From sequence record MF158041: DNA of 64,000 bases. One strand, written 5' to 3'. The notes under the pieces were generated by a model. The model made no database searches and had not been told where the DNA came from. It saw only the letters and a list, made by a program, of their open reading frames with translations. This DNA comes from Shigella phage Sf15. Made by a program: the position numbers and the translations under genes. Shown piece by piece: positions 12,252-64,000 of this stretch (positions within the stretch are counted from its first letter, which is position 1; every line of letters begins with the position of its first letter).

Positions 12252-12381
12252 CATTTGGGGAAGAGTTGGTGAAGGTTATGACTGGACTCTTCTTAAAACA
12301 AATGTTAAAAGTAACGAGATAGCTTACTACAAAATCTATTACCATAAAACTTTTAGAGAGGTAGAGTATCGTGAGCAATAA
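12238..12381 (+). CDS. hypothetical small protein (47 aa)
   Basis: ATG at 12238 preceded by GGAG; internal part of track ORF 12160-12381. Confidence 0.35.
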   Translation: MKLYSIWGRVGEGYDWTLLKTNVKSNEIAYYKIYYHKTFREVEYREQ

Positions 12382-12622
12382 AGAGCAAGAAGCTTTAGCA
12401 ATCTTCAAGAGCGAAGACAAATCAATAGCTTTTGTCTCAGAGGCTTGGTGCAGGGATTTGGGGTATGATTGGTATCTCTTCTTATGCGCTAAGAAAGATG
12501 TTAAACCAGTTGATGAAACCCGATTCAAAGAACTGTATAATATCTGCCAAGAGGGTTATGAAGAACATTACGAAGGTTCTTTGAATCCTGTAAATTCAAA
12601 AGCTTCAGATTTATTTTATTGA
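12371..12622 (+). CDS. hypothetical protein
   Basis: 83 aa ORF, GTG start with GAGG RBS. Confidence 0.45.
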   Translation: MSNKEQEALAIFKSEDKSIAFVSEAWCRDLGYDWYLFLCAKKDVKPVDETRFKELYNICQEGYEEHYEGSLNPVNSKASDLFY

Positions 12623-12632
12623 GAGGTTTGAA

Positions 12633-12878
12633 ATGTTAAAATTATTGATACCAGCTTTAGTAGTCCTACTGGTTGGATGTAACCCTTCTTATGAGAATAA
12701 GGATGCTTCTTACAGACTTCCTCCAGAAATGCAAGACTGCAAGATTTATAAACTTAATGGTGATGCCATTAGCAGGGATGTTATTGTAGTTCGCTGCCCA
12801 AATTCTCAGACGACAACTTCTTACAAGTATGGGAAGAATAGTCAGTCACACACCACAGTTTTTGATGGGGGATATTAA
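12633..12878 (+). CDS. putative lipoprotein
   Basis: signal peptide MLKLLIPALVVLLVGC with lipobox-like LVGC. Confidence 0.5.
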   Translation: MLKLLIPALVVLLVGCNPSYENKDASYRLPPEMQDCKIYKLNGDAISRDVIVVRCPNSQTTTSYKYGKNSQSHTTVFDGGY

Positions 12879-12879
12879 T

Positions 12880-13086
12880 ATGCAGGTTCTGGTAAACTTT
12901 ATCTATAAGTATGAAAACATCTTCAGCACTATGACTGTAGCTCAACGCAATCCAGTTATTCCACGAGAAGGGGAGACTGTTGAGATTAATGATTGGAGCT
13001 ACAGAGTTGAAGAGGTCAAGCATAAACTTAAAGATGGTTATGACCACCAAGTTGTAAATGTGTATTTAAAAGGTAAGTGGCAATGA
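12880..13086 (+). CDS. hypothetical small protein
   Basis: start chosen at MQVLVNF with upstream GGGGG RBS. Confidence 0.4.
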   Translation: MQVLVNFIYKYENIFSTMTVAQRNPVIPREGETVEINDWSYRVEEVKHKLKDGYDHQVVNVYLKGKWQ

Positions 13087-13616
13087 GTGAAAAAAGGTTA
13101 TTCAAAGAGTCCTACAGTAATCTGAAGATGGGTTATCAAGGCTACTCAATACCTTGGTATGAAGATAAGAAAAAACAGTATTCAAACCCTTTTATATATC
13201 AACCTGTAAAACTCTCTGTACTGGAGTTTTGGCATGAAACTGGAGCTACGCCATACCAATTTGACAACATGGAATATGCGCGTATTTGTAAAAGTCTTGG
13301 TGCAAGACAAGTTGATAATATCATTGAACATTTGAAGGATTTGTATAAAGATTTTGCTGGATACTTATACGAGAAACAGTTTGGGGAGTGCTTAAAATAC
13401 CCAGATGGGTCACTTGTTCTGCTCTCATACATGTCTAATGGTAACATAAAAATTGCATACAAAGACCTGTGTGATAACTACTATGATTTTTATACTAGAT
13501 TGAGACTACCATACCCAGATAGCTCCTTTTCCTTATCTAGCAATGCAATGACGCACTCTGGGAATATTGTTTCTGTTGAAAAATTAAAAAAGACGTGGGA
13601 GAAGAAAAATAAATGA
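13083..13616 (+). CDS. hypothetical protein
   Basis: about 177 aa ORF with AAGG RBS. Confidence 0.45.
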   Translation: MSEKRLFKESYSNLKMGYQGYSIPWYEDKKKQYSNPFIYQPVKLSVLEFWHETGATPYQFDNMEYARICKSLGARQVDNIIEHLKDLYKDFAGYLYEKQFGECLKYPDGSLVLLSYMSNGNIKIAYKDLCDNYYDFYTRLRLPYPDSSFSLSSNAMTHSGNIVSVEKLKKTWEKKNK

Positions 13617-14713
13617 CAATTCTGTACAAACAAAATAAAGATGGTTCTTTCAACGTCTGGTCATGTGTTGCTGTAGGTGATAAAGTCGTCACAACTTATG
13701 GTAAAGAAAATGGCAAGATGATGTTTGAAGAGTACACAGCAGAGCCAAAGAACATCGGTAAGAAGAATGAGCGTAATGCTGAACAGCAAGCTCTTTTTGA
13801 AGTTGCTGCTAAGTACAAGAAGCAGGTTGACCGTAAAGGGTATGCTTACACAAAATCTGAAGCAGAGAATGTTGAGAAGGTTGGTGTACAGCTTGCTCAG
13901 GATGCTTCCAAGATAAGTCACAAGAAGTATCTGGTATTCCCTGCCGATGCTCAACCTAAACTTGATGGGGTTCGTTGCAGGATTTCAAGAGATGCTGACT
14001 CAGAAAGTTTTACAGCATATTCTCGTGAGAACACGGTATACAACATTCCTATAGAGTTGATTCCTGATGTTCTTCTTATGCTGAAACTGCACAAAGATGT
14101 TGAGGATTTCGACGGGGAGATTTATGCTCATGGTTGGGACTTGGAAGATATTGTATCTATGATTAAGAATGCTGACAATCCAGACCGTCACCTTCTTAAA
14201 TTCTACTGGTATGATATCTGTGACAAGACTAAATCTTGGCCTGAGCGTCGTGAAGTTATTGATAATTCACCAATCGTTGAACTCGGTGATGCTTGCAGGG
14301 TTGTACCTGTTCAGACAATCCGTGTTAACTCTTGGGAAGAATTTGATAATGCTCATGACAACTGGGTTAAACTCAAGTTTGAAGGGGCAATGTATCGGTC
14401 AATCTCACCAGATTCGTTCTATGAGTGTGGTCATCGCTCTTACTTCCTGATTAAGCACAAGAAGATGCACACACAGGAATTTAAAGTAACTGGTGTAAAG
14501 ACTGATAAACGTGGTCATGGTAAGTTCGTTGTAGAGACTCTTCCTAACGTCTTTGTAGATGTTTCATGGAAAACTGCACACGAGAAGAAAAAGTATCTTG
14601 CTGAACATCCTGAAGAGTTTATCGGGAAGCCTTTAACGGTTCAGTTCCAGAAGATGACTCGTAAGGGTTCTTTACAGTTCCCTGTTGGGCTAGTAATTCG
14701 AGATTATGAATAG
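13613..14713 (+). CDS. ATP-dependent DNA ligase
   Basis: adenylation motif I KLDGVRC (KxDGxR); size as T7-type ligases. Confidence 0.75.
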   Translation: MTILYKQNKDGSFNVWSCVAVGDKVVTTYGKENGKMMFEEYTAEPKNIGKKNERNAEQQALFEVAAKYKKQVDRKGYAYTKSEAENVEKVGVQLAQDASKISHKKYLVFPADAQPKLDGVRCRISRDADSESFTAYSRENTVYNIPIELIPDVLLMLKLHKDVEDFDGEIYAHGWDLEDIVSMIKNADNPDRHLLKFYWYDICDKTKSWPERREVIDNSPIVELGDACRVVPVQTIRVNSWEEFDNAHDNWVKLKFEGAMYRSISPDSFYECGHRSYFLIKHKKMHTQEFKVTGVKTDKRGHGKFVVETLPNVFVDVSWKTAHEKKKYLAEHPEEFIGKPLTVQFQKMTRKGSLQFPVGLVIRDYE

Positions 14714-42944: not shown

Positions 42945-43020
42945 TGGAGTATCGGAAGGGACTCGAACCCTCATAAACCTGTTTTGCAGACAGGCACATA
43001 ACCATTTCTGACACCGACAC
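42945..43020 (-). tRNA. tRNA-Cys (GCA)
   Basis: manual fold: 7-bp acceptor, T-arm, anticodon loop shows codon TGC on plus strand; CCA encoded. Confidence 0.7.
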
Positions 43021-43026
43021 ATAATT

Positions 43027-57703: not shown

Positions 57704-58371
57704 TTATGGGACACCTACTGAAGAAGAGTTGGAAGAACTTAACAGATATGGTTCCCCATCTGAAGAGGAAGAGAAAGAACTCCGAAGAATGGGAAGCAAT
57801 TACTAAGAAATGTTTTAAGGATTTGATAGAGATGAAAAAGTTTGAACTTGAAAGAAAGTATCTGGTACTTAGCCTAGATGATATCAACACACATCTTGAC
57901 GAAAGTGAGAAGTGGTCTTTAGACTTACTTGTTAATCGACTTAAGATGGAACGAGAAGATTCAGGTAAAGAGCCACTTGAAGGTATCTTTGTCAAGAAAT
58001 CTTATCCGTTCTTTGAAGATACTTTGAAGAAACTTGAGATGTATGTTAAGCAGCAGAACCGTAAAGAGTTCTCTATGATTTCTCTTGGTGGACAACAAAT
58101 GCTGGTTATGGAAGATATAAACCCTAAGAGAACCAACAAAGGTGTTTGTATCAAGGTCACAGGTAAAGAAGAATTTGTTGAATATGACATACTCAGACAC
58201 ATTATAGATGGTTTGGGTGTTGTACTGAACATGAATGAATACCATATTAGTTCACACCCGATTAAGGGTGACCAGATAATGATTCAGGTAAGAGAACGTC
58301 ATAGTGGGTTCACACACTTCTTCCAGACTTCTAAAACTTCATTGCAAGCCATGCTTAGTGAATTGATGTAA
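57700..58371 (+). CDS. hypothetical protein
   Basis: 223 aa ORF, last gene of plus-strand block. Confidence 0.45.
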   Translation: MIMGHLLKKSWKNLTDMVPHLKRKRKNSEEWEAITKKCFKDLIEMKKFELERKYLVLSLDDINTHLDESEKWSLDLLVNRLKMEREDSGKEPLEGIFVKKSYPFFEDTLKKLEMYVKQQNRKEFSMISLGGQQMLVMEDINPKRTNKGVCIKVTGKEEFVEYDILRHIIDGLGVVLNMNEYHISSHPIKGDQIMIQVRERHSGFTHFFQTSKTSLQAMLSELM

Positions 58372-58377
58372 GACTAT

Positions 58378-58402
58378 ACAGCCCCTTAATTGGGGCTTTT
58401 TA
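58378..58402 (+). terminator. intrinsic terminator
   Basis: GCCCC-TTAATT-GGGGC hairpin followed by TTTTT. Confidence 0.65.
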
Positions 58403-59905
58403 TTGAGTAAATTTACGAAATTTATAATTTTTATAAAATTTGGGATTCACTCCGTTCATCTTGGGTCACCATGATATGTGATAAAATATCTATACCCTTC
58501 TAAACACCCTCTCTAAGCATCATCTCTATATAGTATTATATAGTATCTATATAGCCTCTTAGTCCCTAAATAGTGCTCTCTATATAGCCCTCTATAAAGC
58601 CTTCTAAGCCTCCCATTAATCAACCCTATACAATCCTTCCTAACCTCTTCCTAGCCCCTTAGAAGCCCCTATACTCATCTTAATCTCTAGGTAAACGATA
58701 GTACCCTATATAGCAGAATCACTAGGTATTACTAAGCCTCTATATAGACTGTTATATAGCACTAAACAGGTATTCCCTGTAAAGGCTTATCCTACAAGGT
58801 CTAACACGGTACTAACAAGGTCTCTTATAAGCCTGTTAATTCCTGTTTTATATAAGATAGTGTATAGATAGTTATTCAGAATTATAAAATTTTTATAAAA
58901 TAGACTAGGTAGGTTACTTTTTAGGTTCTTTGGAGATTCTTGAAAATATCTACTTAGGATGTATATCTGCTTGGTAGCCCTTAACAGCCCTGTAACATCC
59001 CCTTTGCAAAATCTTAAAATATCATTAACAATCTCTTAACAACTCTTCCAAGTCCTTAACATCTCTTCAGAGTTCTTAACAGTCTCTTAACAGAACTAAC
59101 AAGAGCTTAACAAGTCTGTAACATTACTAACAAGAGTCTAACAAGTTGCTTATAAGTTGCTAAATAGTTAAATCTTAAGAGTTATTTTGTTAAGATAATT
59201 AACAAGTTCTAAACCTTTTTAACAAGCTATTAACATGGTCACTATCTCTTGGTCTATAGTTCCCTTCCCTTCTTAGTGATTCTCTATAAAGCCCTCTTAA
59301 AAGCTCTCTGTAGCTCTGTATAGCCTCTTCTAAGGTTCTCCCTAGTAACTACACCCCAACTACCTGTATAGCTCTTTATAGGGCTTTCTAGGGGCTTATA
59401 TAGGGACTTCAAAGAGTCTAACAAGCTCTTAACATACCTCTAACAAGGATTTAACAAGGGGCTAACAAGTCTCTAATAAGCATAACTATGTAGCATTTGT
59501 TAAGATTTTGTTAAGAGAATGTAAAGGGGGCTAACTTTTACGTTACTTTTAAGGTTCTTTTACGTTACTTTGAAGACTCCATAACATACTTTAAAGCTAT
59601 TATCAAGCCCCTGTTTAAGCATTCACAAGATACTAACGAGATAATAAAGCTTATACCCTTATAAGATTCTTTTAAGGCTCTAGAAAGCTCTATAAAGGGC
59701 TTTTAAGAGTAGGTTAATATGATTGCTTAAGATGAGATGATAAGCCCGTATAGAGCGTTATAGAGCGTTTTAGGGATTGCCCTTCCCTTTCGGGTTATGG
59801 GCTTATATTTAAGTTGATTTGATAAGAGGATATAGAGTAAGCTATAGAGTTATTGTTCTAAATGTATGAGATAGGTTCTATCGAATCAATGGTAAGATTC
59901 TAGGA
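58403..59905. repeat. ORF-free region with clustered short repeats (CTATATAG palindromes; TAACAAG / CTTAACA iterons)
   Basis: no ORF over 60 aa on either strand; many direct and palindromic short repeats visible by eye. Confidence 0.6.
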
Positions 59906-59909
59906 AGAC

Positions 59910-59935
59910 GTAAAAAAGCCCCATCTAAGGGGCTG
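59910..59935 (-). terminator. intrinsic terminator for the minus-strand small-gene array
   Basis: minus-strand hairpin GCCCC-TTAGAT-GGGGC followed by TTTTTT. Confidence 0.55.
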
Positions 59936-59975
59936 TAAAGGTGTCTGGGGCTATTTGCCCCGTTGCGGCGACTTG

Positions 59976-60227
59976 TTAGTTATTGAAGCCGTCAACTTCA
60001 TAGTAAAGCGTGATAAGAGAATCACCCCAATAGTAAGAGGATTTGCCATCCTTTAAGACTTCTTGTTTTACTTCTTTCCAGAACCACTCAGATTGATTGT
60101 AGTCCTGAATAGTTGCTTTTAGACACATATCAACCATGCCAAAAACATCGCCAGTTCCAACCATATCAAATTTAACATCTAATACATGGAAGCCAAAATT
60201 GTTAACAGTTGCGTGGATAGTAGCCAT
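59976..60227 (-). CDS. hypothetical small protein
   Basis: 83 aa, preceded by conserved leader cassette. Confidence 0.45.
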   Translation of the reverse strand: MATIHATVNNFGFHVLDVKFDMVGTGDVFGMVDMCLKATIQDYNQSEWFWKEVKQEVLKDGKSSYYWGDSLITLYYEVDGFNN

Positions 60228-60296
60228 TTTCAGATTCTCCAGTTTAGGAATTTAGGTTAGTGGGGAAGTCTCCCTCCCCGTTGAAAGTAATATTAA
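60228..60296 (-). repeat. leader cassette copy (GC hairpin + CCTAAACTGGAGAATC RBS block)
   Basis: shares core GATTCTCCAGTTTAGGA and GGGG..CCCC hairpin with eight other copies. Confidence 0.6.
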
Positions 60297-60556
60297 TTCA
60301 TTGCTGCATAAGTTGCAAGTCTTTTTTCATTGTATTTTGTAAGAATCTCACAAGATAAAACGTCATACTTTGCAACGGCTTCAGATTTAGTTAAACCGAA
60401 ATGGCTTACAATTTCACCATTCATGAATCCGACTACTTCATAAGATTCTGCGATGATTTCACCGTTGAACCAATCACTTTCAATACGTTTGCAAAGTTGG
60501 ATATCTTCTTTGTCAGTACCGATTTGTAACAGGATAGTGATTTCTTGATTATTCAT
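60293..60556 (-). CDS. hypothetical small protein
   Basis: 87 aa, leader cassette upstream. Confidence 0.45.
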   Translation of the reverse strand: MNNQEITILLQIGTDKEDIQLCKRIESDWFNGEIIAESYEVVGFMNGEIVSHFGLTKSEAVAKYDVLSCEILTKYNEKRLATYAAMN

Positions 60557-60617
60557 TTTCTAGTCTCCAGTTTAGGATTGTTGGGGAAAGGTCATCCCCT
60601 CCCCGTTGATAAGTACT
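60557..60617 (-). repeat. leader cassette copy
   Basis: same conserved core. Confidence 0.6.
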
Positions 60618-61145
60618 TTATAGATTTGTGATGATTTCGTCAAGGGAATTTTCTAAGTTTTTTAAAGATTGTTCGTAAAGCCTAATTCCCCTACTTAATG
60701 CTTCCCCTAACGTAATTTTAAAATTAGTTGTTGGGTAGTCACTTGTAAAGATGTTTTCCACTTCATAGAGTGGGTATTGTTGGTTACCCGTTCCCATAGC
60801 ATACATGCCTGTATAGTGGATTGCAATAAAAAGATTATGGGACTTAATAGAGCGCTCATAAGCCATTTTAAAGCGGTTTAACTCGTTTTTAGTTGCCTTA
60901 ATAGCCATTTCGTGAATTTCTGCGACTATAGCCATATAATCATTCAGAATAAGAGAAATAGCCCCCATAAAGTTGTTGGCTGTTACCGCTTTTACATTTG
61001 GTCGGTGTACATAAAACTTCTTATCTTCCCCTTTTGTGATAACTGCAAAAACTTTGCTCTTTAAGGTAAATTCCCAAGTATCTTTACAAGGCTTGCTCAT
61101 CACTTCACGGCTACGGATTGCATTAACAGCATTAAACTTATTCAT
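60618..61145 (-). CDS. hypothetical protein
   Basis: 175 aa, leader cassette upstream. Confidence 0.45.
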   Translation of the reverse strand: MNKFNAVNAIRSREVMSKPCKDTWEFTLKSKVFAVITKGEDKKFYVHRPNVKAVTANNFMGAISLILNDYMAIVAEIHEMAIKATKNELNRFKMAYERSIKSHNLFIAIHYTGMYAMGTGNQQYPLYEVENIFTSDYPTTNFKITLGEALSRGIRLYEQSLKNLENSLDEIITNL

Positions 61146-61210
61146 TCTAGATTCTCCAGTTTAGGAATTTTGTTTTAGTGGGGAAGTCTCCCTCCCCGTT
61201 GATGAATACT
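61146..61210 (-). repeat. leader cassette copy
   Basis: same conserved core. Confidence 0.6.
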
Positions 61211-61351
61211 TTACTTGTTTTGATTCTGTATTGCAAGTAGTTTTTTATCAAAAAGTTTATCTGAGATTTCACCAATGGTGAGCATTGCTAATGGCAACAC
61301 AACAGAAACAATCATACCGCAAAGGATAGGGTTTTTAATGATATCTAACAT
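61211..61351 (-). CDS. small hydrophobic protein (46 aa), not in ORF track
   Basis: ATG at 61351 directly follows a leader cassette copy; translation MLDIIKNPILCGMIVSVVLPLAMLTIGEI... contains a TM-like segment. Confidence 0.4.
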   Translation of the reverse strand: MLDIIKNPILCGMIVSVVLPLAMLTIGEISDKLFDKKLLAIQNQNK

Positions 61352-61383
61352 TTAGTGATTCTCCAGTTTAGGAAGTTGCCTTT
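61352..61383 (-). repeat. leader cassette copy (short form)
   Basis: GATTCTCCAGTTTAGGAAG core. Confidence 0.5.
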
Positions 61384-61547
61384 TGAAGATACTATATAGA
61401 TATGATTAGACCTTTGCAAGTACTTTTTACGCTTATCTATAAAGAATCTATTAAGTTAATCCCTTTTAGATAAACCCCCTCGAACAAAGTTACACTTGTC
61501 AAGGGGCATTGTCAATAGTTTTTCAAAAGATTTTTATAAGTTGTTGA

Positions 61548-61889
61548 TTAGCTTATAAAGATTTTTTCTGGCTTAACATAGGTTAATGACTGTTTTTTAA
61601 GCAAATCAGACCAAATGAGCGCGGCAATGTGGCTATATCCCTTTTCTCTTAACTCCTGCATAGCTGATTTGCGAGTTTCGAAACGTGTAGCATAGTATTC
61701 AGTGTTAAGGGTAGTTTTATTCCCTTCATTGTCAACATGTACAATCTGCATCACTTGAAAGGGGCTTACATCTTCTCCCCTGTTCCATTGCTCAAAGTAC
61801 TTGAGACACTGCATAGGTTTCATTTTGTCGTTAACTTGGGTAGACCATGACGAATTTTCTTTATCGGTGATAATTGTTACATAGGCCAT
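61548..61889 (-). CDS. hypothetical protein
   Basis: 113 aa, long-form leader upstream. Confidence 0.45.
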   Translation of the reverse strand: MAYVTIITDKENSSWSTQVNDKMKPMQCLKYFEQWNRGEDVSPFQVMQIVHVDNEGNKTTLNTEYYATRFETRKSAMQELREKGYSHIAALIWSDLLKKQSLTYVKPEKIFIS

Positions 61890-61974
61890 TTTCAGATTCT
61901 CCAGTTTAGGATTGTTGGTAAAGCTCTTTATCTGGGGCTTAAGATACTAGCTTTTAAACCCCATGTAAAGCACT
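61890..61974 (-). repeat. leader cassette copy (long form with promoter-like TTTACA-17-TAAGAT)
   Basis: one of three near-identical long copies. Confidence 0.6.
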
Positions 61975-62172
61975 TTAATAAATTCTATCCATCAGATTAT
62001 TCACGGCCATAATTGCATTATCTTTGAAGTGTGGATGACTGCTATTCTGTGAGAATAGTATTTCTCCATTGTATACTATTTTTAGGTCTATCTTTGAACC
62101 TTCCATGTTAAGGTTACACTCTACACCTTTTAAACACCACAAGGTAGAAAGTTTTTGCATCAGTGATAACAT
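61975..62172 (-). CDS. hypothetical small protein
   Basis: 65 aa, long-form leader upstream. Confidence 0.4.
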   Translation of the reverse strand: MLSLMQKLSTLWCLKGVECNLNMEGSKIDLKIVYNGEILFSQNSSHPHFKDNAIMAVNNLMDRIY

Positions 62173-62263
62173 TTTAGATTCTCCAGTTTAGGATTGTTGG
62201 TAAAGCTCTTTATCTGGGGCTTATCTTATCTAACTATAAACCCCATGTAAAGTACTTTATTAG
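62173..62263 (-). repeat. leader cassette copy (long form)
   Basis: near-identical to copies at 61890 and 63416. Confidence 0.6.
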
Positions 62264-62485
62264 TTATTTGTAGTAATAATATGTAAACTCATTTATCAGG
62301 CTTCCATCCTCATCATTATACTGCTTATGACTAGCCAGATAACCGCCATTAGCTAGAATTTCATCAATCAACTTTTTAGCGTCATCGTTGGGAATCCTAA
62401 CAGGTTTACTAAACGGCTGTAAATAGGTACGACGAACATTTGAGAATTTAAAATCAATGGTTTTTACGTTAAGAACTTGCAACAT
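62264..62485 (-). CDS. hypothetical small protein
   Basis: track ORF 62264-62563 trimmed to Met at 62485, which directly follows the leader core. Confidence 0.45.
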   Translation of the reverse strand: MLQVLNVKTIDFKFSNVRRTYLQPFSKPVRIPNDDAKKLIDEILANGGYLASHKQYNDEDGSLINEFTYYYYK

Positions 62486-62540
62486 TTTTTGAATCTCCAG
62501 TTTAGGATTGTTGGGATGTTTCCCGTTGATGAATACTTTA
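62486..62540 (-). repeat. leader cassette copy
   Basis: GAATCTCCAGTTTAGGATTGTTGGG core. Confidence 0.55.
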
Positions 62541-62563
62541 CTTTCTTGCGTTTTCAGTGTCAA

Positions 62564-62794
62564 CTACTTTTCTATAAGAATCTCATATTCACCATTCACA
62601 CTATCAAAGTAAATACCTTCATCATCTTCTGATTTATAGTAGCACTGTATATCATCCGATGCTGGGTAGTCTTGCCTTGCTATCTGACAGGCAACAATAG
62701 CATTATTTTCGCTACCTGTAAACTCTTCTAAACCTTTAAAGTTGCATTGTGAACCATTGCAGATAGATAGAATAAGATAGATTGTTGTAAGCAT
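62564..62794 (-). CDS. small secreted or lipoprotein-like protein
   Basis: hydrophobic N terminus MLTTIYLILSICNGS; GAGG RBS. Confidence 0.4.
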   Translation of the reverse strand: MLTTIYLILSICNGSQCNFKGLEEFTGSENNAIVACQIARQDYPASDDIQCYYKSEDDEGIYFDSVNGEYEILIEK

Positions 62795-62857
62795 CTTTTA
62801 AGCCTCTTGTAAGCCCCTGTGCGGGGCTTTTCTAGTGAACTGGTGTGATTCTATGGT

Positions 62858-63415
62858 TTATGCTGTTAAGTCGTTTATAACCGTTTCTGTTACGTTGCAT
62901 TGCATGGTGTCAAAGATATCACAATATACATTGCTCATCCCATCACTACGTTGGACTATTTCTGCAATGTTGCGTAGTTCGTCTGGTACATATCCTAAAT
63001 TTCTATTGTTTAGGTTAGGGACAAAGAAAGGCGCATACATAGCATTAAATTCAGTTGTGTAAACCTTTTTAATCCATTCTTTATCGAAATATTCTGTAAA
63101 GCTTGCTACGTCGCTCATGTTCTCACAGCTCCAGTCATCTTGTAAATCATCTTCTGGAATATCCAGTTCCAAGATAACAAGCTTTTGTGACTTCATTTGA
63201 TAGGCTGCTGTAATGCTTGCGCTATCAAGCGCGTTTCTAATACCTTCATCTGTGATTTGTTCGTCATCCAGATTCTCTACATCATAGAACTTGTTAACAG
63301 GGTAGACGTAAAAACATCCATCCATATCAGAGCAATTCCAAGCTCCTGATGGTTTATCACCGCCATTGATAAGGTTTACAAAGTTTTCTTGTGTAGTACC
63401 ATGAAAGCATTTCAT
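62858..63415 (-). CDS. hypothetical acidic protein
   Basis: 185 aa, long-form leader upstream. Confidence 0.5.
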   Translation of the reverse strand: MKCFHGTTQENFVNLINGGDKPSGAWNCSDMDGCFYVYPVNKFYDVENLDDEQITDEGIRNALDSASITAAYQMKSQKLVILELDIPEDDLQDDWSCENMSDVASFTEYFDKEWIKKVYTTEFNAMYAPFFVPNLNNRNLGYVPDELRNIAEIVQRSDGMSNVYCDIFDTMQCNVTETVINDLTA

Positions 63416-63499
63416 TTTAGATTCTCCAGTTTAGGATTGTTGGTAAAGCTCTTTATCTGGGGCTTATCTTATCTAACTATAAACCCCATGTAAAGCACT
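63416..63499 (-). repeat. leader cassette copy (long form)
   Basis: near-identical to copies at 61890 and 62173. Confidence 0.6.
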
Positions 63500-63748
63500 T
63501 TATTTAGTTTTCTTTGTAAAGATTAGTTTAACGGCAACAGTTGGTAACTCTTCAATACTTGTGAACAAAGTCACTTTTTGAGTCTTGACATTATAGCCAT
63601 ACTTTGAACCATAAGCCGTAAAACGGTTTACAATGTAACTGTAAGTTTTTGCAGTGTTATCTGGCATATGATATAAAAACGGCTTGCCAAGGTTATCAAG
63701 TTGTGTTAAGAGTCGGCATGTATCAGGGATATTCAACATATTAAACAT
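63500..63748 (-). CDS. hypothetical small protein
   Basis: 82 aa, leader cassette upstream. Confidence 0.45.
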   Translation of the reverse strand: MFNMLNIPDTCRLLTQLDNLGKPFLYHMPDNTAKTYSYIVNRFTAYGSKYGYNVKTQKVTLFTSIEELPTVAVKLIFTKKTK

Positions 63749-63810
63749 TTTCAGATTCTCCAGTTTAGGATTGTTGGGGCTTCTAACTTGCCCCGTTGAT
63801 GAGTACTCTA
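63749..63810 (-). repeat. leader cassette copy
   Basis: GATTCTCCAGTTTAGGATTGTTGGGGC core with GGGGC..GCCCC hairpin. Confidence 0.6.
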
Positions 63811-63832
63811 CTACTATGCTTTTGCAATGTCA

Positions 63833-63980
63833 ATCAAATCTCTGAATAAATTGCATCGCAGATTTCACGGAAAACTTCAACCGGTAAGTTACGCTGTAAC
63901 CATGTTGCAAAGAAATCAGCAATTGCAAAGTTTGCATCAAAATCAACACATAGCCACACTTTAACAGCAAATCTAAACAT
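63833..63980 (-). CDS. possible small protein (48 aa)
   Basis: ATG near 63980, stop at 63833; no clear RBS. Confidence 0.25.
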
Positions 63981-64000
63981 TTTCAAGTCAAGTTCTTTAT

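Follow-up and report, generated by a model that had tools for sequence, protein, structure and literature searches.

A stretch of 64,000 nucleotides from Shigella phage Sf15 (sequence record MF158041), hereafter called the window, was analyzed for the small genes lying at positions 59976-63980. Ten complete minus-strand genes encoding proteins of 46-185 residues were found there, together with the 3′ end of an eleventh; they are referred to as g0 to g10 in the direction of transcription, g0 being the incomplete one (Table 1). These genes probably make up the distal half, relative to transcription, of an array of early accessory genes that is common to all Felix O1-like phages (subfamily Ounavirinae). 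The reading favored here, which we hold to be the probable one, is that the array is cargo assembled from exchangeable cassettes, each built on a repeated leader, and that the encoded proteins are non-essential and restricted to particular lineages. The proteins most likely act on the host cell, with takeover, counter-defence and exclusion as candidate roles. As judged from comparative sequence, the cassette system would be subfamily-wide and similar in design to the PeSL elements of T4-type phages, though unrelated to them in sequence; it has two leader designs and an invariant core in the 5′ untranslated region (5′-UTR).

The source phage is a Mooglevirus, a Felix O1-like myovirus of the Ounavirinae. 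Region 58300-64000 was 98.0% identical to Shigella phage Sf13 over the full query length; the identity to Citrobacter phages Michonne and Mordin was 91%. In all, matches were obtained with 257 phage records. In Sf13, the full array comprises 19 small minus-strand genes, gp57 to gp39, in approximately 7.2 kb. The Sf13 counterparts of g10-g0 are gp39-gp49, the promoter-distal part; the array runs on past the window end to gp57, and the window thus stops within it.

The ten open reading frames (ORFs) are real genes. All ten proteins matched PHROG families end to end (E 1e-28 to 1e-95), and most differences from homologs fell in third codon positions for g1, g2, g3, g6, g9 and g10, with counts at positions 1/2/3 of 97/74/341 for g2 and 78/54/243 for g6. 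All had already been annotated as hypothetical proteins in GenBank relatives, and every PHROG family matched carries the label 'unknown function'. A preliminary description of this DNA, made from the letters alone, had proposed about ten genes of this size without assignable function, and it was borne out on both counts. Scans against Pfam, NCBIfam and PADLOC gave nothing above threshold (a single weak, chance-level PADLOC match had E 0.035), the nine upstream array proteins of Sf13 had no Pfam match, and no profile of a known anti-defence or defence family was matched in these general libraries, which include no dedicated anti-defence library. Intergenic gaps measured 61-91 nt, with one exception of 196 nt between g6 and g7.

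The leaders carry most of the argument. The 13-mer TCCTAAACTGGAG occurred in nine exact copies between 60237 and 63770, all on the minus strand and nowhere else in the 64 kb. Shuffled sequences gave a mean of 1.65 matches at two or fewer mismatches, and none of 100 shuffles reached nine. In Sf13, 16 copies lie within the array and zero in the translationally coupled genes upstream. Just upstream of nine of the ten complete genes, a sigma-70-type site of their own (-35 box, 17 nt, -10 box; consensus match only) and a GC hairpin were found. These are followed by an invariant 5′-UTR core, CCTAAACTGGAG, then 8-9 nt and the ATG; the core is absent elsewhere in the window. The preliminary description had credited each gene with its own strong leader. 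This holds for nine genes and fails for g3, and 'strong' was an overstatement since the Shine-Dalgarno sequence is only the 4-nt GGAG, optimally spaced 8-9 nt before the ATG in every copy. It is the uniformity of the leaders, not the strength of the ribosome site, that stands out.

Leader copies were collected from nine phage loci and fell into two designs, 51 of type 2 and 43 of type 1. Type-1 leaders consist of a near-consensus promoter (TTGACA or TTGCAA, 17 nt, then TAAAGT, TATAGT or TAGAGT), the sequence AyTyATCAAC, a GC hairpin of 4-9 bp with a loop that is often GAGA or GAAA, and (C)AACAATCCTAAACTGGAG, 8-9 nt before the ATG. The hairpin sits about 10 nt after the -10 box and, given the usual distance from -10 box to start point, would form the 5′ end of the mRNA. 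Type-2 leaders have the layout AAAGTGCTTTACATGGGGTT, loop, AAGCCCCAGATAAAGAGCTTTAC, followed by the same core. In these, the promoter is embedded within a bipartite hairpin (lower stem of about 10 bp, 2x2 internal loop, upper stem of about 10 bp) whose 5′ arm contains the -35 box TTTACA and whose loop and 3′ arm hold the -10 box; this hairpin can form only in RNA read through from upstream. The hairpins fold at free energies (dG) of -22 to -25 kcal/mol with z scores of -2.2 to -4.1, and having no U-tract they are not classical intrinsic terminators. TAnnnT was retained exactly 17 nt after TTTACA in 48 of 51 type-2 copies, as TAAGAT, TAGTAT, TATCTT or TAAAGT, while the loop sequence varied. Among 43 unique type-2 copies, one pair of the lower stem was G-C in 27 and U-A in 11, and a U-G pair of the upper stem was C-G in three. 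Retention of the -10 box together with covariation of the stems argues that promoter and hairpin are both under selection. An Rfam scan of 58300-64000 returned only a chance miRNA match (E 0.22).

The spacer between g6 and g7 departs from both designs. It contains two hairpins, the sequence UUUAU and a fresh promoter, which suggests that the array is probably divided here into two transcription blocks; the same layout is kept in relatives, as an 'other' class of leader. Two overlapping TTGACA motifs (TTGACAATGCCCCTTGACAAG) lie in and beside a spacer hairpin at 61476-61547. The GenBank record of phage Sf14 begins exactly in this gap, at the base following the g6 stop codon.

Array proteins were clustered into families across nine phages, this phage included. 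Gene order proved collinear along a shared backbone, and the differences between phages were whole genes. Backbone families I, O, Q and S (g0, g6, g8 and g10) were present in every phage compared, including Felix O1, whose array is limited to families A, E, F, G, H, I, O, Q and S. The variable genes in the window are g1 (J), g2-g3 (K-L), g4 (M), g5 (N), g7 (P) and g9 (R), and g5 was seen only in this phage, Sf13 and Sf18. The preliminary description had taken all of the genes as cargo; this applies to the variable cassettes, and the four backbone genes of the eleven have to be set apart from them.

Closely related phages differed by deletion, replacement and duplication of whole cassettes, with junctions within leaders. 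Compared with the window, Sf18 was 97-100% identical for g2-g6 and g8-g10 and 96% identical for g7, and in the g1 slot (locus L009, 11718-11966) it carries an unrelated 82-residue protein, family T in place of J. In Michonne, an unrelated protein of 65 residues is encoded between the homologs of g3 and g4, which is one slot upstream from g5. In Moogle and pEC-M719, a type-1 leader equivalent to that of g1 is joined straight to the g2 start (ATGAAATG), and in Moogle the start of g6 directly follows the g4 leader. In Michonne (locus L001, region of genes 127/128, minus strand), the 85-residue family D protein is duplicated in tandem; at the junction, a full 'empty' leader with its ATG is fused to the next type-2 leader, ...CTAAAATG|CTTTACATGGGG, which resembles a scar left by recombination. 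The leaders of g2 and g5 in the window are identical apart from one position in about 86 nt, offering ample homology for recombination. Genome comparison points to leader-to-leader recombination as the probable route of exchange. The leader of the Sf18 family T gene has no hairpin.

A type-2 leader was searched by blastn in distant mode and matched 287 phage records at 1458 places. Nearly all of these records are named as Escherichia, Salmonella, Shigella, Citrobacter or Erwinia phages, and those among the matches listed are 83-90 kb long apart from one partial record of 22 kb. In IMG/VR, a leader 20-mer was found repeated on contigs of 54-94 kb. No T4-type phage was matched in the blastn search, and by this comparison the two designs are confined to the Ounavirinae. 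Two of the 287 records carry odd names, one 'Staphylococcus' and one 'Campylobacter', and are probably mislabelled or contaminated entries. The same sequences were listed in the Felix O1 genome paper as '57-bp' and '39-bp direct repeats' and left uninterpreted (PMC3185647), and a 14-bp repeat_region is annotated in the Mordin record.

Early timing in this phage is suggested by the host-type promoters and by Felix O1 homologs. In published reverse transcription polymerase chain reaction (RT-PCR) data on Felix O1, ORFs 16, 20, 21 and 22 peaked at 5 min, the peak of ORFs 17, 19 and 23 came at 25 min, and none of the seven belonged to the 60-min class. By homology, ORF20 corresponds to g0, ORF21 to g6, ORF22 to g8 and ORF23 to g10. 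The preliminary description had held that late expression, or homologs with housekeeping structural roles, would speak against its cargo reading; the homologs of g0, g6 and g8 are in the 5-min class, that of g10 is in the 25-min class, and none is late. Dispensability was read from a CRISPRi-ART screen of phage SUSP1, in which agp095-agp111 were all scored 'Not Fit', that is, dispensable on Escherichia coli DH10B, at a multiplicity of infection of 10 (PMC11879866). Nine SUSP1 array genes share PHROG families with g0-g4, g6 and g8-g10; g5 and g7 have no SUSP1 counterpart. An accessory role is further supported by the variation of gene content between near-identical phages and by the position of the array just downstream of the rIIA/rIIB and macro-domain block. 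In SUSP1, rIIA/B counter RexAB (PMC11879866), so the neighborhood of the array does contain counter-defence functions. A literature search on transcriptomics or anti-defence in Felix O1-like phages yielded two sources only, the genome paper of Felix O1 and the SUSP1 screen; the array genes do not figure in a paper on Gifsy-prophage resistance or in one on Sf14 physiology.

In short, the proposed mechanism is as follows. Each gene, or the g2-g3 pair, would be a self-contained cassette with a host sigma-70 promoter, a GC hairpin and the (C)AACAATCCTAAACTGGAG core. Host RNA polymerase would fire every cassette soon after DNA entry, and the hairpins may insulate, attenuate or stabilise the transcripts. 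The 60-90-nt near-identical leaders would at the same time provide portable homology for the recombination system of the phage, by which whole cassettes could be deleted, duplicated, inserted or replaced. Among the products, g2-g3 would supply an enzyme-like protein, possibly of ADP-ribosyltransferase fold, and its small acidic partner, g7 a membrane peptide, g8 a coiled-coil protein, and g10 a protein that may be packaged in virions. The roles of the hairpins, the recombination mechanism and the function of every protein are put forward as interpretations.

Several observations weigh against this reading. None of the proteins resembles a known takeover or anti-defence factor; the roles named in the preliminary description (anti-restriction, anti-CRISPR, host shutoff, superinfection exclusion) found no match in the Pfam, NCBIfam and PADLOC scans, in sequence searches of solved structures or in the literature, so that what stands of its takeover and anti-defence proposal is an early accessory cargo with no protein linked to any such function. 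The published transcription data cover Felix O1, not this phage or any Mooglevirus, and they are end-point, noisy and coarse; capsid and tail genes also appear at 5 min in the same table, which makes the timing weak evidence. The 'Not Fit' scores come from a pooled screen on one laboratory strain and are not proof of an accessory role in nature, and the CRISPRi-ART guides overlap the repeated leader. Promoter-like sites numbered 26 in the whole region versus 18 +/- 4.1 in shuffles, an enrichment that is not clear; the case for the predicted promoters is made by the position and conservation of the sites. Finally, leader uniformity could be explained by selection for expression alone, and recombination at the leaders is deduced from genomes, not observed.

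Three other explanations of the array were weighed. The genes could form one long early operon, processed in the manner of T7 class I and driven mainly by a strong promoter before Sf13 gp57, with the hairpins as RNase III, processing or stabilising sites and the inner promoters incidental or minor. The type-2 stem of about 20 bp, with its conserved 2x2 internal loop and compensatory changes, does speak for selection on a folded RNA or DNA; the hairpin is possible only in read-through RNA and lacks the U-tract of a terminator, and g3 is clearly co-transcribed with g2. What this explanation accounts for poorly is the retention of TAnnnT at exactly 17 nt in nearly all type-2 copies despite loop variation, which is hard to explain without promoter function, as well as the near-consensus TTGACA-17-TAAAGT promoters of type-1 leaders. 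We regard it as unlikely, and it is not mutually exclusive with the cassette reading. Alternatively, the genes could serve conserved auxiliary functions in the phage's own cycle, as helpers of replication, transcription timing or assembly that the leaders only co-regulate. Families I, O, Q and S fit this, being universal among the phages compared and under purifying selection, and so does the presence of a g10 homolog in Felix O1 virions. Against it stand the 'Not Fit' scores of all SUSP1 counterparts, the absence of six of the ten complete genes from at least two of the eight relatives compared (g2 and g3 from Felix O1 only), the absence of seven of the ten from Felix O1, and the finding of no similarity to replication, transcription or assembly families in Pfam, NCBIfam and PHROG scans. 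On balance, this explanation seems rather improbable.

It was also considered whether part of the products, g10 at the least, might be carried inside the virion as small internal proteins and enter the cell along with the DNA, as those of T4 do, so that part of the array would supply pre-made early effectors. The g10 homolog of Felix O1, Gp23 (9.7 kDa; 55-56% identity), was identified in CsCl-purified, twice-banded virions by four peptides with 53% coverage; g10 is small, acidic (isoelectric point, pI, 4.5) and dispensable in SUSP1, and PeSL-like elements are also found at T4 internal-protein loci (PMC2839356). The identification comes from a single mass-spectrometry dataset in which the Gp23 score is among the lowest of the table, however, and carry-over of an abundant soluble protein is possible. 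The virion table of Sf14, in its part covering gp20-gp45, lists modelled structural proteins only and no array-gene homolog. This third explanation is judged very unlikely. The presence of Gp23 in virions does touch the second point raised by the preliminary description, that of homologs with structural roles, and a dispensable acidic protein of 83 residues is hardly a housekeeping structural component.

The g2-g3 pair is the best candidate for an enzymatic host-directed effector. Initially, g2 seemed confined to phages of about 88 kb; a profile search then gave 387 clusters at 50% identity, including proteins of Vibrio phage K460, Pseudomonas phage Kassivere and contigs of up to 250 kb, none of which had a Pfam annotation. 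Across 104 relatives with 22-71% identity to g2, the conserved positions were H5-G-T, W26, S29, Y36 and D94-x-S96-C97-x-N99-M100. Y36, D94 and S96 were invariant (104/104), and H5, G6, T7 and C97 were conserved in 103, 101, 87 and 95 of the relatives, respectively. An enzyme-like conserved site in g2 is likely. An ADP-ribosyltransferase-like fold is plausible, with chances close to even. The top fold matches of the AlphaFold2 model were ADP-ribosyltransferases (weak), and PARP was the only recurrent weak Pfam match among the relatives (13/104, all sub-threshold, best E 0.0045; other families at most three each). The N-terminal FHGT motif aligned with 'LFHGT' of Tpt1, not significantly, and the His of the H-G-S/T motif and the Tyr are conserved as in the H-Y-E clade, an equivalence drawn from the sequence.

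A number of results count against this fold assignment. AlphaFold2 gave a model of medium quality (pLDDT 68, pTM 0.67), and a Foldseek search with it against viral structures gave no significant match. The Pfam scan showed no PARP match for g2 itself or for the family consensus. Sequence searches of the PDB with g2 and with the g2- and g8-family profiles gave no meaningful match, and alignment of the g2 family by hhalign to E. coli KptA (Tpt1/KptA; sequence confirmed as a Tpt1 family member) reached a probability of 4%. E83, the expected catalytic Glu, is less than 60% conserved, and the invariant D94 lies in a loop/helix region of the model. H5, D94, S96 and C97 may instead form another hydrolase- or transferase-type catalytic center or a ligand site. 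The conservation of D94, S96 and C97 beside a poorly conserved H-Y-E Glu agrees with this, as does the lack of a significant profile match to any ADP-ribosyltransferase family, and it is the recurrence of PARP, by far the most frequent weak Pfam match, and the Tpt1-like FHGT motif that argue the other way. We treat such a different active center as a real possibility that falls short of an even chance.

In contrast to its neighbors, g3 has neither promoter nor leader core. It starts 63 nt after g2, past a hairpin, with its own AAGAGG ribosome site. In all 21 of the g2-carrying Ounavirinae loci, a g3 homolog follows g2 at +61 to +66 nt and the hairpin between them is kept, with a varying loop; g2 and g3 are a two-gene unit. 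Beside distant g2 relatives the g3 partner is not conserved and other small genes follow (including at locus L079), so the pairing holds only within the Ounavirinae. The suggestion that g3 might be a lipoprotein was rejected. Moogle, SUSP1 and pEC-M719 have Ser at the position of the candidate lipobox cysteine, Cys12 (LSLSNG), no Lys or Arg occurs in the n-region, and the maximum Kyte-Doolittle value of 1.02 over 19 residues is below the transmembrane range. A distant g2 relative was found on a 13-kb contig of an AT-rich phage (L054, Logan SRR33902329) in an array of about 25 small genes, many of which have a repeated promoter of another sequence, CTTGCAAT...TATAGTATAGTTATACTA. It appears from this that other phage lineages, too, have arrays of small genes with individual promoters that include the g2 family.

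The g7 product, proposed earlier as a 46-residue membrane peptide, fits this reading, with one hydrophobic helix (Kyte-Doolittle 2.39 over 19 residues); it was already annotated in Sf13, Michonne and Mordin, and SUSP2 has a different small hydrophobic peptide in its place. Homologs of g8 carry Pfam PF26821. In the g8 model (pLDDT 76), a long hairpin of antiparallel coiled coil is accompanied by small beta elements, and the structure matches were generic only.

Among known systems, PeSLs are the closest in design. They are composite intergenic elements with a sigma-70-like early promoter, a stem-loop, and a Shine-Dalgarno sequence and start codon at the 3′ end, described in the T4-type phages RB49/phi1, PST and nt-1, where a poly-G/poly-C stem-loop lies between or over the -35 and -10 boxes (PMC2839356, PMC4122927). 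PeSLs and the present leaders both flank small function-unassigned ORFans in a variable (hyperplastic) region, and in both, whole ORFs have been gained, lost or replaced between close relatives, with the crossovers located in the elements themselves. Promoter consensus, a GC stem-loop adjoining or overlapping the promoter, the 3′ Shine-Dalgarno sequence and start, and ORFan insertions and deletions with leader junctions were all found here. Unlike PeSLs, the leaders come in two fixed designs with an invariant 5′-UTR core of roughly 20 nt and, in type 2, a long covarying bipartite stem, and they share no sequence similarity with the RB49/phi1 elements. As blastn matched no T4-type phage, the leaders are an analogue of PeSLs, not a homologue. 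In PeSLs, experiments have demonstrated promoter and terminator activity as well as mini-circles (PMC2839356), whereas the leaders are known from comparison of sequences. A literature search found no link between PeSLs and Felix-like phages. The PeSL authors likened their elements to integron cassettes (PMC2839356). Integrons likewise hold arrays of single ORFs, promoterless or small, between repeated recombination sites, with cassette content varying between close relatives, but the present array has no integrase and no attC-type site, its cassettes carry their own promoter, and exchange would use general homologous recombination.

In the class I early operon of T7, RNase III processing hairpins lie between genes, and three tandem promoters stand at the left end only. 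Imperfect conserved hairpins without U-tracts between successive small early genes are common to both systems; unlike in T7, nearly every gene of the array has its own predicted promoter. The host-takeover module of SPO1 is also a dense cluster of small early genes, mostly ORFans and each non-essential on its own, with good ribosome-binding sites and several host-type promoters, which are said to be strong in a 1998 account by Stewart and coworkers. To our knowledge, neither a uniform repeated leader nor an exchange of cassettes is on record for SPO1. The T4 Alt and Mod enzymes are of the R-S-E class, not H-Y-E. With ADP-ribosyltransferases as a group (T4 Alt/ModA/ModB, DarT, Tpt1/KptA, PARP), g2 shares F-H-G-T on a beta-strand and an invariant Tyr about 30 residues on, and with the phage enzymes early expression in a virulent phage and, here, a macro-domain gene nearby. 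It differs in the lack of a significant sequence or profile match and in its constant 76-residue partner within the Ounavirinae. The SPO1 module counts about 26 small early genes (PMC6873191), and several products have demonstrated host targets (RNA polymerase, HU, ClpCP); those of the present array are tied to none.

Felix O1-like phages are used for typing, biocontrol and therapy of Salmonella, E. coli and Shigella, and carry an early ORFan block of about 7 kb without assigned function. Exchangeable promoter-hairpin-leader cassettes would explain the gene-content differences between near-identical isolates. Leader anatomy gives a simple rule for separating backbone from cargo genes and for correcting start codons, and a ranking for functional screens follows, with the g2-g3 pair first and then g1, g4, g5, g7 and g9. 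The leaders could further serve as compact expression modules for engineering Felix O1-like phages. The PeSL concept, previously limited to T4-type phages, is extended to an unrelated myovirus subfamily, which suggests that 'plug-and-play' early gene cassettes arose by convergent evolution. A more far-reaching proposal can be formulated, in which the leaders are an integrase-free system for cassette exchange and co-regulation, the core AATCCTAAACTGGAG is bound by one trans-acting off-switch (a RegB/RegA-like nuclease or repressor, or a small RNA), the bipartite hairpin is a processing or insulation site, and g2-g3 is a two-component ADP-ribosyltransferase-like effector family of many large virulent phages. 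As a whole, this proposal has a low probability.

Table 1. Positions of the array genes, leaders and associated hairpins in the window.
Feature	Positions	Strand	Details
g0, 3′ fragment (54 codons) of 135-residue backbone protein	63834..64000	-	family I; Sf13 gp49, Felix O1 ORF20, SUSP1 agp103; ORF exceeds window end
g1 leader, type 1	63758..63833	-	TTGACA-17-TAGAGT 63833-63805; hairpin 63794-63776; core CCTAAACTGGAG 63769-63758
g1, 82 residues, variable cassette	63500..63748	-	family J, phrog_9030
g2 leader, type 2	63424..63499	-	hairpin 63499-63447 around TTTACA-17-TAAGAT 63494-63466; core 63435-63424; dG -22.1, z -2.97
g2, 185 residues, acidic	62858..63415	-	family K; large unannotated phage protein family
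g2-g3 hairpin AAGCCCC-GCACA-GGGGCUU	62811..62829	-	no promoter, no leader core
g3, 76 residues, pI 4.1	62564..62794	-	family L, phrog_4640; obligate partner downstream of g2
g4 leader, type 1	62495..62563	-	TTGACA-17-TAAAGT 62563-62535; hairpin 62524-62513; core 62506-62495
g4, 73 residues, variable cassette	62264..62485	-	family M, phrog_10118
g5 leader, type 2	62181..62259	-	hairpin 62259-62201 around TTTACA-17-TAAGAT 62251-62223; core 62192-62181; dG -25.1, z -4.09
g5, 65 residues, variable cassette	61975..62172	-	family N, phrog_13570
g6 leader, type 2	61899..61974	-	hairpin 61974-61922 around TTTACA-17-TATCTT 61969-61941; core 61910-61899; dG -21.9, z -2.22
g6, 113 residues, backbone gene	61548..61889	-	family O; Felix O1 ORF21 (80% identity); SUSP1 agp108
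g6-g7 spacer, 196 nt	61352..61547	-	hairpin 61506-61476 + UUUAU; second hairpin; TTGCAA-17-TATAGT 61419-61391; g7 core 61372-61361; z -3.05
g7, 46 residues, single-helix membrane peptide, variable cassette	61211..61351	-	family P, phrog_7482
g8 leader, type 1	61154..61236	-	TTGCAA-17-TAAAGT 61236-61208, overlaps g7 end; hairpin GGGGAGG-GAGA-CUUCCCC 61197-61180; core 61165-61154
g8, 175 residues, backbone gene	60618..61145	-	family Q; Felix O1 ORF22; SUSP1 agp109
g9 leader, type 1	60565..60643	-	TTGACG-17-TAAAGT 60643-60615; hairpin 60604-60583; core 60576-60565
g9, 87 residues, variable cassette	60293..60556	-	family R, phrog_7022
g10 leader, type 1, weak promoter	60237..60318	-	TTGCAA-17-TAATAT 60318-60290; hairpin 60279-60262; core 60248-60237
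g10, 83 residues, pI 4.5, acidic, backbone gene	59976..60227	-	family S, phrog_4559; Felix O1 homolog Gp23
Array end	59917..59961	-	hairpin 59961-59947; intrinsic terminator AGCCCCUUAGAUGGGGCU + U6, 59934-59917; z -3.07

Two alternative gene models were rejected. A separate 48-residue gene at 63834-63980 corresponds to the last 48 codons of the 135-residue g0 protein, the ATG at 63980 being an internal Met. A 99-residue form of g4 starting at TTG was discarded since the extension (62486-62563) carries the TTGACA-17-TAAAGT promoter, hairpin and leader of g4 itself, which places the start at ATG 62485. The GenBank homologs Sf13 gp45 (L003 12967-13266) and Sf18 gp83 (L009 10481-10780) are annotated from the TTG as 99-residue proteins, and the Michonne record uses the 73-residue ATG start.

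Ahead of the array with respect to transcription are rIIA/rIIB and the genes for polynucleotide kinase, spanins and a macro-domain protein. The macro-domain gene, Sf13 gp59 (L003 18390-19184), is directly upstream of the array and beyond the window; it scored 33.9 bits against Pfam Macro (cutoff 22 bits), and its product could handle ADP-ribose. Felix O1 retains the macro-domain gene yet has no g2-g3. Downstream, the array is followed by a terminator and a 1.5-kb non-coding repeat region. The preliminary description had called the region flanked by the repeat array, which is correct for this one side only. The region, 58400-59950, lies between convergent terminators at 58380-58397 (+) and 59917-59934 (-) and is packed with short repeats in an 11-bp phase, CTAACAAG/TTAACAAG, CTCTATAAAG and CTTTTAAGGTTCT, in an iteron-like pattern. 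It is a candidate replication origin or protein-binding array, and Felix O1 has a non-coding gap at the equivalent place (12306-13927). Elsewhere in the window, 26 tRNA genes are clustered on the minus strand at 42945-47611, as known for Felix O1-like phages.

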